This document shows positions 4,111 to 63,815 of a stretch of 64,000 nucleotides of DNA, one piece after another. Below the pieces are notes generated by a model. The model was given only the letters and a program-made list of their open reading frames with translations. It was not told where the DNA came from and did not search any database. The DNA is taken from the NCBI RefSeq assembly GCF_002854065.1, contig NZ_CP024147.1; one strand, 5' to 3'. Source of the stretch: Escherichia coli (GTDB taxonomy: Bacteria; Pseudomonadota; Gammaproteobacteria; Enterobacterales; Enterobacteriaceae). A program made the translations under genes and the position numbers. Positions within the stretch are counted from its first letter, which is position 1. Every line of letters starts with the position of its first letter.

Positions 4111-4125
4111 GCCAACCCTTCCGGT

Positions 4126-4185
4126 TGCAGCCTGAGAAATCAGGCTGATGGCTGGTGACTTTTTAGTCACCAGCCTTTTTGCGCT
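4126..4185 (+). terminator. rplL-rpoB intergenic attenuator (partial terminator)
   Basis: Two consecutive hairpins, agcctgagaaatcaggct and ggctggtgactttttagtcaccagcc, the second followed by TTTTTGCG; position matches the known rpoBC attenuator. Confidence 0.7.
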
Positions 4186-11500: not shown

Positions 11501-12758
11501 TCGTACTAAAGAAAGCTACAAAGTACCTTACGGTGCGGTACTGGCGAAAGGCGATGGCGAACAGGTTGCTGGCGGCGAAACCGTTGCAAACTGGGACCCG
11601 CACACCATGCCGGTTATCACCGAAGTAAGCGGTTTTGTACGCTTTACTGACATGATCGACGGCCAGACCATTACGCGTCAGACCGACGAACTGACCGGTC
11701 TGTCTTCGCTGGTGGTTCTGGATTCCGCAGAACGTACCGCAGGTGGTAAAGATCTGCGTCCGGCACTGAAAATCGTTGATGCTCAGGGTAACGACGTTCT
11801 GATCCCGGGTACCGATATGCCTGCGCAGTACTTCCTGCCGGGTAAAGCGATTGTTCAGCTGGAAGATGGCGTACAGATCAGCTCTGGTGACACCCTGGCG
11901 CGTATTCCGCAGGAATCCGGCGGTACCAAGGACATCACCGGTGGTCTGCCGCGCGTTGCGGACCTGTTCGAAGCACGTCGTCCGAAAGAGCCGGCAATCC
12001 TGGCTGAAATCAGCGGTATCGTTTCCTTCGGTAAAGAAACCAAAGGTAAACGTCGTCTGGTTATCACCCCGGTAGACGGTAGCGATCCGTACGAAGAGAT
12101 GATTCCGAAATGGCGTCAGCTCAACGTGTTCGAAGGTGAACGTGTAGAACGTGGTGACGTAATTTCCGACGGTCCGGAAGCGCCGCACGACATTCTGCGT
12201 CTGCGTGGTGTTCATGCTGTGACTCGTTACATCGTTAACGAAGTACAGGACGTATACCGTCTGCAGGGCGTTAAGATTAACGATAAACACATCGAAGTTA
12301 TCGTTCGTCAGATGCTGCGTAAAGCTACCATCGTTAACGCGGGCAGCTCCGACTTCCTGGAAGGCGAACAGGTTGAATACTCTCGCGTCAAGATCGCAAA
12401 CCGCGAACTGGAAGCGAACGGCAAAGTGGGTGCAACTTACTCCCGCGATCTGCTGGGTATCACCAAAGCGTCTCTGGCAACCGAGTCCTTCATCTCCGCG
12501 GCATCGTTCCAGGAGACCACTCGCGTGCTGACCGAAGCAGCCGTTGCGGGCAAACGCGACGAACTGCGCGGCCTGAAAGAGAACGTTATCGTGGGTCGTC
12601 TGATCCCGGCAGGTACCGGTTACGCGTACCACCAGGATCGTATGCGTCGCCGTGCTGCGGGTGAAGCTCCGGCTGCACCGCAGGTGACTGCAGAAGACGC
12701 ATCTGCCAGCCTGGCAGAACTGCTGAACGCAGGTCTGGGCGGTTCTGATAACGAGTAA
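8535..12758 (+). CDS. rpoC: DNA-directed RNA polymerase subunit beta-prime
   Basis: 1407-aa ORF starting with GTG at 8535 ([28 protein letters not shown]), zinc-binding CxxC motifs, recognised RpoC. Confidence 0.98.
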
Positions 12759-12779
12759 TCGTTAATCCGCAAATAACGT

Positions 12780-12806
12780 AAAAACCCGCTTCGGCGGGTT
12801 TTTTTA
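12780..12806 (+). terminator. rho-independent terminator after rpoC
   Basis: aaaaacccgcttcggcgggttttttt: GC stem with TTCG loop and T-run. Confidence 0.85.
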
Positions 12807-12970
12807 TGGGGGGAGTTTAGGGAAAGAGCATTTGTCAGAATATTTAATGAATTTCTGGATACTCATAATCAATGTAGAGATGACTAATATCCTGAAACTG
12901 ACTGAACTAATTGAGTCAAGCTCGGCAAGAATTCGATACTATTCCTGTGTGACTTTCTTAAGGAACGAGA

Positions 12971-13510
12971 ATGAAACAGGAAGTGGAGAAGTGGCGACCT
13001 TTTGGACATCCGGATGGTGATATTCGTGATTTATCATTTCTTGATGCTCATCAGGCTGTCTACGTTCAGCATCATGAGGGCAAAGAGCCTTTAGAGTATC
13101 GCTTCTGGGTTACCTACTCTCTTCACTGCTTCACAAAAGATTATGAACATCAGACTAACGAAGAAAAACAATCGTTAATGTACCACGCGCCTAAAGAATC
13201 TCGTCCCTTCTGCCAGCACCGTTATAACTTAGCGCGCATACACTTAAAAAGAACCATTTTGGCGCTGCCAGAAAGCAACGTTATTCATGCTGGGTATGGT
13301 AGCTATGCCGTGATTGAAGTGGATTTAAACGGAGGAGACAAGGCATTTTACTTTGTTGCGTTCAGGGCTTTCAGGGAAAAGAAAAAACTTCGTTTGCATG
13401 TAACTAGCGCTTATCCCATTTCTGAAAAACAGAAAGGTAAATCAGTGAAATTTTTCACCATTGCCTACAACTTATTGAGAAATAAGCAGCTTCCTCAGCC
13501 CTCAAAATAA
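12971..13510 (+). CDS. yjaZ: stationary-phase/heat-shock associated protein YjaZ (HtrC)
   Basis: 179-aa ORF with RBS aaggaacgagaATG; position directly after rpoC matches yjaZ. Confidence 0.85.
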   Translation: MKQEVEKWRPFGHPDGDIRDLSFLDAHQAVYVQHHEGKEPLEYRFWVTYSLHCFTKDYEHQTNEEKQSLMYHAPKESRPFCQHRYNLARIHLKRTILALPESNVIHAGYGSYAVIEVDLNGGDKAFYFVAFRAFREKKKLRLHVTSAYPISEKQKGKSVKFFTIAYNLLRNKQLPQPSK

Positions 13511-13512
13511 CA

Positions 13513-13535
13513 AAACCCACCTTAAGGTGGGTTTC
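13513..13535. terminator. hairpin terminator overlapping yjaZ stop; stronger on minus strand
   Basis: Stem cccacc/ggtggg with ttaa loop; plus strand followed by only TTT, minus strand followed by TTTTGTTATTTT. Confidence 0.6.
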
Positions 13536-13837
13536 GCCAGAGAATTATCTCTGGTATTCAGAACGCCATTACCGGACTTTGCCTTGACCTTGCGATAATC
13601 GCAGGTTGCGGGATGTCTGAATTTCTTCAGTCTGCTGCATCCTGGAAGATGAGAACATGTGTTCTTATTTTCGTCTCTATCATAGTTGAGTATTTACTCT
13701 CTTACAATCAGATCTCTTTCATTGCTCAACAGGCGATGGCTTCAGACTTTGCATTACGGAATTTTTAAGAAAGGCAGGGCGAAACGAGGAAGAAGCTTTT
13801 CGCCCTGGACAACATTCCTGCTGACGGCACTACCATA

Positions 13838-13885
13838 AAAAAACGCAACGCTTTCAACAACCTTGCGTTTTTCATCTTCCGTAGC
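13838..13885 (-). terminator. candidate terminator downstream of thiH (thi operon end)
   Basis: Inverted repeat aacgcaa...ttgcgtt flanked by A7 on one side and T5 on the other; on the minus strand it reads hairpin then TTTTTTT, about 40 bp after the thiH stop. Confidence 0.55.
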
Positions 13886-13919
13886 GGCTCGTAATAAATT
13901 TACGTTCTTACATTCTGTC

Positions 13920-15053
13920 TCATGGCCTTTGCGAGGCGCGTCCCAGATAGCTGTCCCAGTCTTTCCATACCGGCTGCAAACCCTGAGCGGTTAACGCGGC
14001 AGCAACCGCTTCCGGTCTGCGATCGTCGTGCGGTGAGAACTGTTCCAACTCGGGGTGATTATCAGCATAGCCACCTGGCTGCGTTTTCGAGAAGGCGCTG
14101 ACGTTATTGATCGCCAGCGGAATAACGCGATCGCGAAACCACGGTGATTCCCGCGTGGAGAGTGACAGTTCAATCTCCGGTGCAAGCAGTCGGAAGGCGC
14201 AGATGGTTTGCACTAACTGGCGTTCATCCATAATCGACGCAGGCTCAATGCCGCCAGTACATGGACGCAGGCGTGGGAAGGAGACAGAGTAGCGGCTTTG
14301 CCAGTAATGCTGTTGCAGCCATAGCAAATGTTCTGCAACCATATAGCAGTCAACTCGCCAGTTGTCGGAAAGGCCAATTAGCGCGCCGAGGCCAATCTTA
14401 TCAATCCCCGCACGCCCCAGCCGATCCGGCGTTTCCAGCCGCCAGAAGAAGTCCTGTTTTTTCCCTTTCAGATGATGGCGGGCGTATGTCGCCTCGTGAT
14501 ACGTCTCCTGATAAACCATCACGCCATCGAGACCAAGCTGTTTTAGCTCGGCATATTCCGCCTCCGCCAGCGGTTGTACTTCCATCTGTAGTGAAGAGAA
14601 CTGTTCACGCAGGGCAGGGAGATGACGACGAAAGTAATCCATCCCCACTTTCGCCTGATGTTCACCGGTGACTAAAAGCAGATGTTCAAAGCCCATCTCC
14701 CGTATAGCGGCGCTTTCCCTGGCAATATCCGCTTCATCCAGCGTTTTGCGCTTGATGCGGTTGCTCATAGAGAATCCGCAGTACGTGCAGTCGTTAGCGC
14801 AAAGATTGGAAAGATAAAGCGGGACGTAGAAACTAACTGTGTTGCCAAATCGCTGACGGGTCAGACGCTGCGCCCGTTGGGCCAGTTGTTCCAGATAGCC
14901 ACTGGCGGCTGGCGATAACAGCGCCATCATATCGTCGCGGGTGAGTTGCGAGGCATTTAGCGCCCACTCTACGTCAGCAGCCGTTTTGCCGTTGATACGC
15001 AGGCGGATGTCGTCCCAGTCCAGTTGTCGCCAGCGATCGCTGAAGGTTTTCAT
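13920..15053 (-). CDS. thiH: 2-iminoacetate synthase ThiH (radical SAM)
   Basis: 377-aa ORF with CxxxCxxC radical-SAM motif ([10 protein letters not shown]); last gene of thiCEFSGH. Confidence 0.93.
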
Positions 15054-19329: not shown

Positions 19330-19480
19330 GAAGCAAGAGACGATCGCCGCAAAGGCGATGCGATAGCAGATTAACTCTTGTTCCCTTCGCAGGTATTAGC
19401 CTGATCAGGTTCCGCGGATCCCGAATAAACGGTCTCAGCCAGTTAAGGCACTCCGACAAGAAATTAGCCCCCACAAACGG
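19330..19480 (-). promoter_or_regulatory. TPP riboswitch (thi-box) in thiC leader
   Basis: Minus-strand leader contains ...GGGGUGCCUUAACUGGCUGAGACCGUUUAUUCGGGAUCCGCGGAACCUGAUCAGGCUAAUACCUGCGAAGGGAACAAG... with the conserved CUGAGA thi-box; boundaries approximate. Confidence 0.8.
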
Positions 19481-31307: not shown

Positions 31308-32849
<1,542 letters not shown>

Positions 32850-32934
32850 CCTTAAAGAAGCGTTCTTTGCAGTGCTCACACAGATTGTCTGATAGAAAGT
32901 GAAAAGCAAGGCGTCTTGCGAAGCAGACTGATAC

Positions 32935-33010
32935 GTCCCCTTCGTCTAGAGGCCCAGGACACCGCCCTTTCACGGCGGTAACAGGGGTTCGAATCCCCTA
33001 GGGGACGCCA
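32935..33010 (+). tRNA. gltV: tRNA-Glu (UUC) in 16S-23S spacer
   Basis: gtccccttcgtctagaggcccaggacaccgccctttcacggcggtaacaggggttcgaatcccctaggggacgcca, 76 nt cloverleaf with anticodon-loop cctttcacgg. Confidence 0.97.
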
Positions 33011-33203
33011 CTTGCTGGTTTGTGAGTGAAAGTCGCCGACCTTAATATCTCAAAACTCATCTTCGGGTGATGTTTGAGATATTTGCTCTTTAAAAATCTG
33101 GATCAAGCTGAAAATTGAAACACTGAACAACGAAAGTTGTTCGTGAGTCTCTCAAATTTTCGCAACACGATGATGAGTCGCAAGAAACATCTTCGGGTTG
33201 TGA

Positions 33204-36107
<2,904 letters not shown>

Positions 36108-36199
36108 CAACGCCGAAGATGTTTTGGCGGATTGAGAGAAGATTTTCAGCCTGATACAGATTAAATCAGAACGCAGAAGCGGTCTGATAAAACAGAATT

Positions 36200-36319
36200 T
36201 GCCTGGCGGCCGTAGCGCGGTGGTCCCACCTGACCCCATGCCGAACTCAGAAGTGAAACGCCGTAGCGCCGATGGTAGTGTGGGGTCTCCCCATGCGAGA
36301 GTAGGGAACTGCCAGGCAT
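36200..36319 (+). rRNA. rrfE: 5S ribosomal RNA
   Basis: TGCCTGGCGGCCGTAGCGCGGTGGTCCCACCTGACCCCATGCCGAACTCAG...GGAACTGCCAGGCAT, 120 nt. Confidence 0.98.
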
Positions 36320-41184: not shown

Positions 41185-41328
41185 CTGACTGTAGGCCGGA
41201 TAAGGCATTTACGCCGCATCCGGCAATCGGTGCACGATGCCTGATGCGACGCTTGCGCGTCTTATCATGCCTACAACCGTTGCCGAACGTAGGCTGGATA
41301 AGGCGTTTACGCCGCATCCGGCAATTCT
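41185..41328. repeat. REP/BIME cluster (three REP units) in aceA-aceK intergenic region
   Basis: Imperfect palindromes gtaggccggataaggcatttacgccgcatccggca / gcctgatgcgacgcttgcgcgtcttatcatgcctac / gtaggctggataaggcgtttacgccgcatccggca. Confidence 0.9.
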
Positions 41329-63523: not shown

Positions 63524-63815
63524 AACTACCTCGTGTCAGGGGATCCATTTTCAGCCTTGGCACAAGGGAAGAGCGGAAGACGGGTGGGCGCAGAGCGATA
63601 CTTCGCTACTATTTTCACCCAGAAGTGCTCCACCACTTGCGAAACGCCCGACTGCGAACGCTTCTGGTGACAACCCAGGGGATTCAGCCCCTGTAGCCGA
63701 TGATGAACGTGGCCAGCCGTTCAATCACCTCGGCGATGCACCCCCTCAGGTGTTATCACAGGACTGGCTCCTCCAACACCGTTACTTGGGCAACGCGCCT
63801 CTTCTGGCCTGCGCT
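63524..63815 (-). promoter_or_regulatory. lysine riboswitch (LYS element / L-box) in lysC leader
   Basis: About 290-nt minus-strand leader reading ...GAGGCGCGUUGCCCAAGUAACGGUGUUGGAGGAGCCAGUCCUGUGAUAACACCUGAGGGGGUGCAUCGCCGAGGUGAUUGAACGGCUGG..., matching the lysC riboswitch as I recall it. Confidence 0.8.

Follow-up and report, generated by a model that had tools for sequence, protein, structure and literature searches.

The minus-strand gene between yjaZ and thiH at 13512-13672 is sroH, a small RNA gene already known in E. coli, and the locus is therefore not new. Beyond what Rfam holds, we describe here a covarying five-helix fold, homologues that score below the family threshold and a linkage of the RNA gene to yjaZ. 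We infer that SroH is probably a dedicated RNA partner of YjaZ, possibly antitoxin-like, and not a free-standing regulator that acts by seed pairing. SroH has reportedly been an orphan sRNA since 2003. Two orphan genes would thus become one testable unit, in which a structured RNA and a putatively RelE-like protein are inherited together.

In the window, by which we mean the whole 64-kb stretch of DNA analyzed, the Rfam covariance model RF00372 matched 13512-13672 on the minus strand with 201.1 bits (E 2e-49; gathering score 80) and over its full length, model positions 1 to 161 of 161. The MG1655 gene b4691 (ncRNA sroH, 4190327-4190487, minus strand) maps to the same positions with identical sequence, and the window is identical to MG1655 from 13400 to 13844. 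The gene has the position and strand of K-12 sroH, between yjaZ and thiH and convergent with yjaZ; RNA sequence and neighbors are the same, and no difference was found at the locus. The preliminary description had named SroH for this interval of K-12 and had proposed an Rfam covariance search; the coordinates, strand and full-model score given above bear it out. In the Rfam model, the terminator stem is the sole structure marked. The genes and the segment discussed below are the following.

12971-13510, plus strand: yjaZ (formerly htrC), 179 aa, uncharacterised; genetic partner of sroH
13512-13672, minus strand: sroH, 161 nt as annotated in K-12 (RF00372 match and b4691 identity)
12811-13755, both strands: yjaZ-sroH cassette, 945 bp with both promoters included, present or absent in E. 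coli
13920-15053, minus strand: thiH coding sequence (ORF listing and RefSeq annotation), the upstream neighbor on this strand

The two genes yjaZ and sroH make up an accessory cassette of 945 bp that is rich in AT, with a GC content of 0.38 to 0.45 against 0.5 to 0.63 in the flanks. The cassette is missing in about 31% of complete E. coli genomes, 1691 of 5420 matching only from window position 13756 on. In ATCC 25922 and 2014C-3338, 23 to 25 nt separate the rpoC terminator from the homologue of position 13756.

Transcription of sroH can be delimited by a promoter-like site and three hairpins.

13679-13707, minus strand: promoter-like site of sroH, with -35 TTGTAA, a 17-nt spacer and -10 TATGAT
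13513-13534, both strands: terminator hairpin common to the convergent sroH and yjaZ, followed by UUUUGUUAUUUU on the sroH strand
13775-13807, minus strand: middle hairpin, in the conserved rpoC-thiH backbone and outside the cassette
13832-13872, minus strand: intrinsic terminator of the thi operon (thiCEFSGH), a hairpin and U7 located 47 nt 3' of the thiH stop

The hairpin nearest to yjaZ, previously described as a minus-strand terminator at 13513-13535, consists of two 11-nt arms (13513-13523 and 13524-13534) that are 100% complementary. Read on the minus strand it runs ...GAAACCCACCUUAAGGUGGGUUUUGUUAUUUU, and its tail overlaps the yjaZ stop codon (TAA, 13508-13510). The hairpin reaches -20.6 kcal/mol (z = -6.3), which none of 200 shuffles equaled, and the UUUUGUUAUUUU that follows it gives the SroH terminator a U-rich 3' end. 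Downstream of the same hairpin on the yjaZ strand there is only UUUCGCC, a weak U-tract. In 34 of 37 sequences, the extended stem keeps a G-U pair that would be A-C on the other strand, indicating selection for structure on the sroH strand.

The hairpin that had been placed about 40 bp after the thiH stop and before a T7 was found to begin 47 nt past the stop codon (13920-13922). Its arms are 13839-13848 and 13863-13872, U7 follows on the minus strand (A7 at 13837-13843 on the plus strand), and its z score of -4.3 was matched by 1 of 200 shuffles. The two minus-strand terminators lie about 330 nt apart, close to the 300 bp given before. A hairpin reported between them at 13775-13810 is present too, while its end had been set 3 nt too far: the 10-bp stem (13775-13784 and 13798-13807, CAGGGCGAAA/TTTCGCCCTG) encloses a 13-nt loop and ends at 13807 (minus-strand z = -3.5, reached by 0 of 200 shuffles). 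This middle hairpin is kept at 95 to 98% identity in cassette-less genomes and may serve as a back-up terminator for thi read-through. A simple consensus terminator scan detected none of the three hairpins; the thi hairpin and the middle one were missed because their loops of 13 to 14 nt exceed the limit of 8 set in the scan.

On the upstream side, sroH has its own predicted sigma-70-type promoter; at its other end, the predicted terminator adjoins the yjaZ stop codon. The site scored 9 of 12 in the promoter scan, its -10 hexamer ends at 13679, and the start predicted about 7 nt downstream coincides with the annotated 5' end at 13672. A similar promoter is found ahead of the RNA core in 20 of 27 scored lineages; among shuffled upstream sequences, the proportion is 36%. 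The proposal of an independent minus-strand transcript starting within 13600-13830 is therefore supported by the promoter with its predicted start near 13672, by the terminator and by the RF00372/b4691 match.

The other origin offered for this transcript, as a stable fragment processed from the 3' end of the thi operon transcript or as read-through from that operon, agrees with the location of sroH downstream of thiH on the same strand but is close to refuted. Both the U7 terminator and the second hairpin separate thiH from sroH, and with a thi terminator upstream of it SroH is not a thi 3' product. Its own putative promoter lies at the right distance. Moreover, thiH and both hairpins are retained, without sroH, in the roughly 31% of E. 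coli genomes from which the cassette is absent, and plasmids and other phyla carry sroH homologues with no thiH. The literature is in agreement: a 5'-tagRACE study (PMC5389530) speaks of the "SroH primary transcript," and both full-length and processed RNAs are reported there, the primary transcript carrying poly(A) at its 3' end. The continuity with an upstream operon that characterizes a 3' UTR-derived sRNA was not found between thi and sroH.

To what extent the RNA is tied to yjaZ can be judged from its distribution. In all 18 YjaZ lineages examined, which include plasmids, Aeromonas, Oceanimonas, Thiolinea and cyanobacteria, a convergent structured RNA with a promoter and a terminator lies at the stop codon, and none of them had a YjaZ gene lacking the RNA. 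For class-1 YjaZ (down to 49% protein identity), a recognizable SroH, encoded on the opposite strand, directly adjoins the stop codon in 14 of 14 lineages; homologues scoring below the Rfam threshold include those of Aeromonas (74 bits) and cyanobacteria (57 to 70 bits). Four distant relatives of YjaZ, three at 29 to 34% identity and one a remote profile match (E 1e-27), all have a convergent structured RNA at the equivalent site, which shares the SroH architecture in three of the four. The RNA class shifts along with the protein class in these distant relatives. Because R1, a covariance model built here, gave no match to the class-2 RNAs, their homology to SroH is argued from shared architecture only.

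Starting from the RNA, we found an adjacent convergent yjaZ at 48 of 58 loci with enough flanking sequence, in a sample that was gathered by exact matching to a pattern and in which E. coli copies predominate. An intact RNA without yjaZ or beside a disrupted yjaZ occurs in at least four lineages; such RNA-only loci could equally mean that the RNA works alone. The genes that neighbor yjaZ vary in every lineage, the RNA being the single conserved one, and no conserved neighboring protein antitoxin was found across the gene neighborhoods of these lineages. A literature search returned no paper linking SroH with YjaZ.

The conserved part of SroH folds into six helices and a candidate pseudoknot, all on the minus strand.

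13510-13642, minus strand: conserved SroH core, from GGAUG to UUUGU (covariance model R1, 95.2 bits)
13638-13642 with 13611-13615, minus strand: P1 helix of the core
13626-13630 with 13617-13621, minus strand: P1a helix of the core
13607-13610 with 13564-13566 plus 13568, minus strand: P3 long-range helix of the core
13600-13606 with 13587-13594, minus strand: P2 helix of the core
13548-13554 with 13537-13543, minus strand: P4 helix of the core
13526-13535 with 13512-13521, minus strand: P5 terminator helix of the core
13631-13634 with 13559-13562, minus strand: candidate pseudoknot of the core

From 5' to 3', a P1/P1a hairpin is followed by the long-range P3 around P2, by P4 and by the terminator, and the joining segments are almost invariant. 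Strong covariation was detected in five of the six helices, and the single-sequence fold had a z score of -5.6. In the real sequences, 98.1% of cells pair and 26 of 37 pairs have changed on both sides (0 of 500 shuffles); the trimmed alignment gave 97.4% and 18 of 37 (0 of 500 shuffles), all of these values coming from alignments that were anchored with regard to structure or fitted to the model and are hence biased towards structure. As a control, sliding the partner by 1 to 3 columns left pairing at just 28 to 45%. The pair types seen in P3 were UA 18, AU 13 and CG 5; CG 31 and UA 3; and GC 34 and AU 2. The loops GCAGA, UCUGAAUA and GGUAA are invariant.

Some details of the fold were decided against the output of RNAalifold. 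On the raw MAFFT alignment, it paired ACC with the second GGU; the first GGU was preferred because the adjoining variable stem covaries. In class 2, its GGAUGG/CCUGCC pairing leaves an A-C mismatch, and the preferred change from GGAUG/CAUCC to GGGUG/CACCC is a clean compensatory one. We also discarded a small protein encoded by SroH. The E. coli RNA has a 29-codon ORF from an AUG at nt 15, in a 5' leader that is lineage-specific; in the other lineages, reading from the invariant AUG within GGAUG gives five codons and then a stop (AUG CAG CAG ACU GGU UAA).

The convergent layout and the common terminator, kept in every lineage, would also suit a cis-antisense, type I-like regulator of yjaZ, in which pairing of read-through transcripts leads to RNase III cleavage or transcriptional interference. 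Owing to the weak U-tract on its strand, read-through from yjaZ is plausible, and such read-through would be fully complementary to SroH. However, a regulator of this kind needs neither a conserved fold nor invariant loops nor a covarying P3, the RNA persists intact at loci without yjaZ, and YjaZ, a soluble protein of 179 aa, does not resemble type I toxins. In 13 lineages, neither the 5' UTR nor the coding sequence of yjaZ contained a complement of the invariant loops. RNAduplex energies between SroH and yjaZ were no better than those of shuffled controls, a global duplex calculation that is itself uninformative. Within the 64-kb window, rRNA operon included, the sole match to a complement of the UCUGAAUAC loop was the sroH locus. 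All in all, we regard cis-antisense regulation as improbable.

The proposed partner of SroH, YjaZ, is listed as a y-ome gene, and its old name htrC was retracted (PMC11551758). It is predicted to be a globular alpha/beta protein, and its structural model appears to contain a domain that is RelE/ParE-like by fold, with modest significance. Sequence searches against Pfam, PADLOC, PHROGs and the PDB gave no family assignment or chance-level matches only, and no match was found in phage genomes. PF27200, the family taken to cover YjaZ loci, comprises 738 clusters at 50% identity. Basic and aromatic residues near the C terminus are conserved (R141, H143 and Y148, alignment A3), and this region appears to resemble the catalytic strands of RelE/ParE-superfamily toxins.

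The module has spread over plasmids, including KPC plasmids of Klebsiella and Pseudomonas, genomic islands and chromosomes, from Enterobacteria to cyanobacteria. A YjaZ-like gene is present on 560 plasmids of PLSDB, 288 of them conjugative, and on pKSE-C11_4, a ColE1-type plasmid of 2.46 kb, YjaZ is the only annotated coding sequence, adjoined by sroH. Frequent neighbors are restriction, Mrr, HsdR, AAA_15/21 or toxin-antitoxin genes. If the pair is an addiction or defense module, it bears on plasmid maintenance. With so many copies on conjugative plasmids and in islands, and since hairpins with conserved loops are also found in single-stranded DNA origins, the conserved sequence might act as DNA, for instance as a site of single-strand initiation or of recombination in mobile elements, the RNA being incidental. 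This is very improbable: the flanking promoter and intrinsic terminator are conserved, the G-U pair found in 34 of 37 sequences would be a mismatch in the other strand, and a discrete E. coli transcript is documented by Northern blotting and in PMC5389530.

More weight has to be given to the possibility that SroH is an ordinary Hfq-associated sRNA that base pairs in trans with targets such as kbl or envelope genes, its linkage to yjaZ reflecting hitchhiking in one horizontally acquired islet. Its Northern signal rises in stationary phase (abundance was compared between the wild type and a crp mutant), and it ends in an intrinsic terminator with a U-rich tail. SroH was enriched in Hfq PAR-CLIP, although the authors do not count it as an established Hfq target, and it bound kbl mRNA in vitro in a gel shift; these two observations fit a trans-acting sRNA and speak against the partner reading. 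In PMC5389530, the function of SroH is described as still unknown, and the sole phenotype cited for a viable K-12 sroH deletion is sensitivity to envelope stress. Viability and this phenotype are unlike what is expected of a strong toxin-antitoxin pair. On the other side, a screen for biofilm formation and motility showed no effect of overexpressed SroH. Some 70 nucleotides stay nearly invariant, and a long-range helix is retained, from Enterobacteria to cyanobacteria, across hosts with differing targets, which is unusual for seed pairing. Furthermore, the linkage to one protein family spans plasmids, chromosomes and phyla, and RNA and protein classes change together. We therefore consider the trans-acting explanation unlikely, yet the most serious of the alternatives.

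Taking SroH as the dedicated partner of YjaZ, the form that seems most likely is that the folded RNA binds the protein via its invariant loops. Binding would restrain or direct a RelE-like activity of YjaZ, and the two genes would make up an antitoxin-like or addiction/defense-type module, to which the common terminator may add an antisense coupling of the yjaZ and sroH transcripts. More tentatively, YjaZ-SroH could represent an unrecognized class of RNA-protein toxin-antitoxin or defense module, with a RelE/ParE-type effector of roughly 180 aa and a convergent, pseudoknotted RNA of about 130 nt.

Among known systems, Hfq-dependent enterobacterial sRNAs resemble SroH in size, intrinsic terminator, stationary-phase accumulation and possible Hfq contact. 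SroH differs from them in its invariant loops, covarying stems and long-range helix, in a range that reaches cyanobacteria and in being co-inherited with one protein gene. In Bacillus subtilis, bsrG/SR4 and txpA/RatA are type I pairs with convergent RNA antitoxins that overlap at the 3' end; the toxin of each is a small membrane peptide, and an antisense overlap of at least 100 nt mediates the action of the RNA. As in these pairs, yjaZ and sroH meet at their 3' ends. In contrast, no extended complementarity of SroH to the yjaZ mRNA was found beyond the terminator hairpin, YjaZ is a globular soluble protein of 179 aa and not a small hydrophobic peptide, and the RNA has a conserved architecture of tertiary type.

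Closer parallels are found in the type III toxin-antitoxin systems (ToxIN, CptIN, TenpIN), which are likewise small mobile two-gene modules, combine a protein of nuclease-like fold, putative in the case of YjaZ, with a folded RNA of its own, occur on plasmids and in defense-type neighborhoods, and have an RNA that can outlive the protein gene. That SroH binds and inhibits YjaZ as in type III is supported only indirectly, by co-inheritance and by the joint change of RNA and protein classes. In type III systems, the RNA is encoded as an array of tandem repeats that lies on the toxin strand, upstream of the toxin gene; SroH is a single copy of about 130 to 160 nt, convergent and with its own predicted promoter, and no tandem repeats were found in 12760-13960. 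The toxins differ as well, being ToxN/AbiQ-like in type III, whereas YjaZ resembles RelE/ParE. In structure, the YjaZ model matches members of the latter superfamily best (RelE, YoeB, HigB, YafQ, ParE and BrnT). Compared with them, YjaZ is twice as long, has an extra N-terminal half and shows no detectable sequence similarity, and the adjacent co-transcribed protein antitoxin typical of RelE/ParE toxins was not seen beside it. If the proposed class is real, it would add a new type of partnership between an RNA and a RelE-fold protein, and SroH would be its RNA component in E. coli.

The Rfam scan of the whole window placed sroH (RF00372) at 13512-13672 on the minus strand with 201.1 bits (model positions 1-161), the gathering score of this family being 80 bits. 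Window positions 13400-13844 are identical to E. coli K-12 MG1655, whose ncRNA sroH (b4691) is annotated at exactly 13512-13672 on the same strand. The naming of SroH for this interval in the preliminary description was therefore right, and, as a member of RF00372, the locus is an already known one; the RefSeq records of other E. coli strains have no feature annotated at this position. By locating the arms and comparing with shuffled sequence, we found all three hairpins that had been claimed in the 409-bp yjaZ-thiH gap:

13513-13523 and 13524-13534, arms of the first hairpin, followed on the minus strand by UUUUGUUAUUUU, which crosses the yjaZ stop codon (13508-13510)
13775-13784 and 13798-13807, arms of the middle hairpin, within the gap
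13839-13848 and 13863-13872, arms of the third (thi) hairpin, 47 nt past the thiH stop codon and followed by U7

None of 200 shuffles was as stable as the first (z = -6.3) or the middle hairpin (z = -3.5), and only 1 of 200 matched the third (z = -4.3). A simple terminator scan of the window reported none of the three, the thi and middle hairpins being missed because of its loop-length limit. Elsewhere in the window, Rfam matches comprised a TPP riboswitch at 19365-19465 (-), expected upstream of thiC, a lysine riboswitch at 63615-63811 (-), P26 at 4115-4176 (+), naRNA4 at 41194-41271 (+), StyR-44 at 33088-33196 (+), and an rRNA operon with tRNA at 31308-36317 (+).

SroH is a self-contained transcription unit yielding a structured RNA. 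It is preceded by a promoter-like site (TTGTAA, 17 nt, TATGAT) whose end at 13679 makes the expected start coincide with the annotated 5' end, 13672. Of the 27 lineages scored, 20 have promoter-like sites ahead of the RNA core, compared to 36% of shuffled controls. A study combining 5'-tagRACE and RNA-seq speaks of an SroH primary transcript, with poly(A) tails at its 3' end, and reports that full-length and processed forms both accumulated in a pcnB mutant (PMC5389530). The independent minus-strand transcript that had been proposed is thus borne out. The other origin proposed, a processed 3' product of the thi operon, was rejected and is hardly conceivable: thiH and sroH are separated by the thi terminator and the middle hairpin, many thiH-carrying genomes lack sroH, and sroH occurs elsewhere without thiH. 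The 5' leader of the E. coli RNA (13645-13672), a hairpin around the palindrome AGAACATGTGTTCT, is specific to this species, other lineages having different 5' hairpins or none.

With both promoters, yjaZ and sroH make up a cassette of 945 bp (12811-13755), whose GC content is 0.38 to 0.45, versus 0.5 to 0.63 in its flanks. Among 5420 complete E. coli genomes with a match to the interval, 3729 covered it entirely, while about 1690 (31%) matched only from position 13756 onward; that phylogroups B2 and D lack sroH had been noted earlier (PMC3318445). In ATCC 25922 and 2014C-3338, a stretch of 23 to 25 nt separates the rpoC terminator from the homologue of 13756-13919, and these strains therefore have neither yjaZ nor sroH with its promoter. 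At these empty sites (L002 1422-1662 and L003), the filler, which reads TGTTATTCAGAGGGCAAAGTCTTCA in L002, is similar, with 11/14 matches, to the stretch immediately 3' of the sroH terminator and includes GCAAAGTCT, the reverse complement of 13745-13753; a remnant and a chance match are both conceivable. In E. coli strain 504838 (L004 788-1485), an IS1 element replaces the cassette in the rpoC-thiH interval. The middle hairpin (13775-13807) is kept in all E. coli; because cassette-free strains have it too, it belongs, like the thi terminator, to the conserved rpoC-thiH backbone outside the cassette, where it may act as a back-up terminator for thi read-through.

Beyond E. coli, SroH and a YjaZ-family gene are inherited together on plasmids, in islands, and across phyla. 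YjaZ (NCBIfam NF007263, PF27200) has a patchy, mobile distribution; its superfamily counts 738 clusters at 50% identity, and the best-scoring 150 of the listed representatives are mostly about 170 to 190 aa long. At loci chosen through YjaZ alone, an SroH homologue directly followed the yjaZ stop on the opposite strand in 14 of 14 class-1 lineages. These comprise the window, a divergent E. coli allele (L005), an E. fergusonii plasmid, broad-host Enterobacteriaceae plasmids, Raoultella, Pantoea, Salmonella, an Aeromonas chromosome beside a tRNA gene, Oceanimonas, Thiolinea, three cyanobacterial contigs, and a 2.46-kb ColE1-type plasmid. The latter (pKSE-C11_4, CP124999.1, 2462 bp; L094), with an RNAI match at 1431-1533, has a YjaZ homologue (59% identity, tblastn) as its sole annotated coding sequence and sroH directly downstream, and the module appears to be its only cargo. 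In Aeromonas (L020 2075-2157), yjaZ has a tRNA gene immediately upstream and an HP1-like phage gene downstream, which suggests that the module occupies the border of an integrated element.

More distant YjaZ relatives have a convergent, promoter-driven, structured, and terminator-ended RNA in the same place. Three of them (29 to 34% identity) are on Klebsiella, Pseudomonas, and Vibrio plasmids, two of the Klebsiella and Pseudomonas ones being named KPC plasmids, and a remote one (profile match, E 1e-27) is on a metagenome contig. The class-2 RNAs of the Klebsiella IncF and Pseudomonas plasmids were located as follows:

L095 3040-3300, convergent strand, class-2 RNA
L096 3052-3250, convergent strand, class-2 RNA
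L097 1746-1950, convergent strand, class-2 RNA

They share the helix architecture of SroH with other loops (GUUACAGG, CCUGCCC) and were detected neither by Rfam sroH nor by our covariance model; further variants occur at the Vibrio (L098) and metagenome (L099) loci. The RNA class changes together with the protein class.

Searching with an exact pattern from the RNA instead gave 62 metagenome and 3 viral-contig loci, and 48 of the 58 with enough flank had an adjacent convergent yjaZ. The ten exceptions had an intact RNA beside relBE (four; L025, L048, L067, and L074, followed by relE/relB and a recombinase), between a lacI-like gene and sodA (three; L053, L056, and L081), or next to an Ogr-type zinc-finger gene in a P2-like viral contig (one; L086), or an IS element between the RNA and a frameshifted yjaZ (two). 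The L074 copy has a mismatch in P4. Among the YjaZ loci examined, none lacked the RNA. We regard cis-antisense control through the terminator shared with yjaZ as improbable, and the intact yjaZ-free copies count against it.

Rfam annotates pairing only in the terminator stem of RF00372. Homologues consist of near-invariant blocks separated by variable hairpins, with the consensus GGAUG-CAGCAGA-C[hairpin]G-ACAUCC-CGC-N-ACC[hairpin]GGUC... followed by GGUAA-N'-x-GCG-(1-2 nt)-UCUGAAUA-CCAG[hairpin]CUGG-CGAA-[terminator]-UUUGU. Invariance of the two pattern blocks is informative only in the protein-found loci, because the RNA-first loci were selected by exact pattern. We tested a six-helix model (P1, P1a, P3, P2, P4, P5) in two alignments, both of which lean towards the structure: with 29 distinct sequences and trimmed apical loops, 97.4% of cells pair and both sides change in 18 of 37 pairs (reached by 0/500 shuffles), and with 37 matches to a covariance model built from it (34 full copies, one partial, and two weak spurious ones) the values are 98.1% and 26 of 37. 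Sliding the partner column by 1 to 3 positions in the trimmed alignment lowered pairing to 28 to 44%. The covariance model found exactly one copy per class-1 locus (71 to 111 bits; 13510-13642 in the window, 95 bits). It also gave a weak match (16 bits, E 0.1) at 12686-12804 (+), at the rpoC 3' end and terminator, as it did in L005, which probably reflects similarity between terminators only.

The clearest case of covariation is the long-range helix P3, whose columns are set by conserved sequence and not by trimming. Its N:N' pair is U-A in 18, A-U in 13, and C-G in 5 sequences. In cyanobacteria, CGC/GCG is replaced by CGU/ACG, and in Thiolinea and the small plasmid by CAC/GUG. P1 is invariant in class 1, GGAUG/CAUCC changing to GGGUG/CACCC in class-2 RNAs. 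The P1 internal loop may also form a pseudoknot with the segment that follows P3, with a single compensatory difference as its basis (CAGA:UCUG in class 1, CAGG:CCUG in class 2). One pair is conserved as G-U in 34 of 37 sequences, although the opposite strand would have A-C there, which shows that the sroH strand is the one under selection; that the conserved element works as DNA is very improbable. Folded alone, the E. coli RNA has an optimum (-55.8 kcal/mol) that differs from the comparative fold (-45.2 kcal/mol with its pairs enforced).

The literature attributes several properties to SroH. PMC5389530 describes its function as still unknown and reports envelope-stress sensitivity of an sroH deletion mutant. 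A Northern blot of the wild type and a crp mutant showed its level rising at stationary-phase entry, AZT induces it 2.6-fold, and its overexpression left biofilm and motility unaffected. A conventional Hfq-type trans-acting sRNA would agree with in vitro binding by kbl mRNA and with enrichment in an Hfq PAR-CLIP experiment; SroH is not an established Hfq target, and we consider this reading unlikely. YjaZ is listed as uncharacterised in the y-ome review. Our literature search, of incomplete coverage, found no link between SroH and YjaZ and neither tied to a toxin-antitoxin or defence function, yet this absence is not proof of novelty. Genomic SELEX placed a holoenzyme binding site in the rpoC-yjaZ spacer (about 12811-12970), under extracytoplasmic stress sigma promoters (PMC5493296), which is of interest because of the reported phenotype of the sroH deletion.

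We propose that SroH would be a dedicated RNA partner of YjaZ, and a functional partnership is, in our estimate, reasonably probable. Its most likely form is an antitoxin-like or addiction/defence-type module, given the toxin-like fold predicted for YjaZ, the mobile and defence-island surroundings of the pair, where restriction, Mrr, HsdR, AAA_15/21, and toxin-antitoxin genes are found, the minimal plasmid carrying only this pair, and the existence of RNA-only loci where protein-only ones were not seen. Against it count the viability of K-12 lacking sroH and the modest fold score of YjaZ, and any binding between RNA and protein is putative. A true RNA-protein toxin-antitoxin or defence system is accordingly a tentative proposition. 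The logic is similar to that of type III toxin-antitoxin systems, but their defining features are missing: there is no repeat array, SroH is convergent instead of upstream, and YjaZ is not ToxN-like. The pair likewise fails the type I criteria and, unlike type II RelE/ParE systems, has no protein antitoxin.
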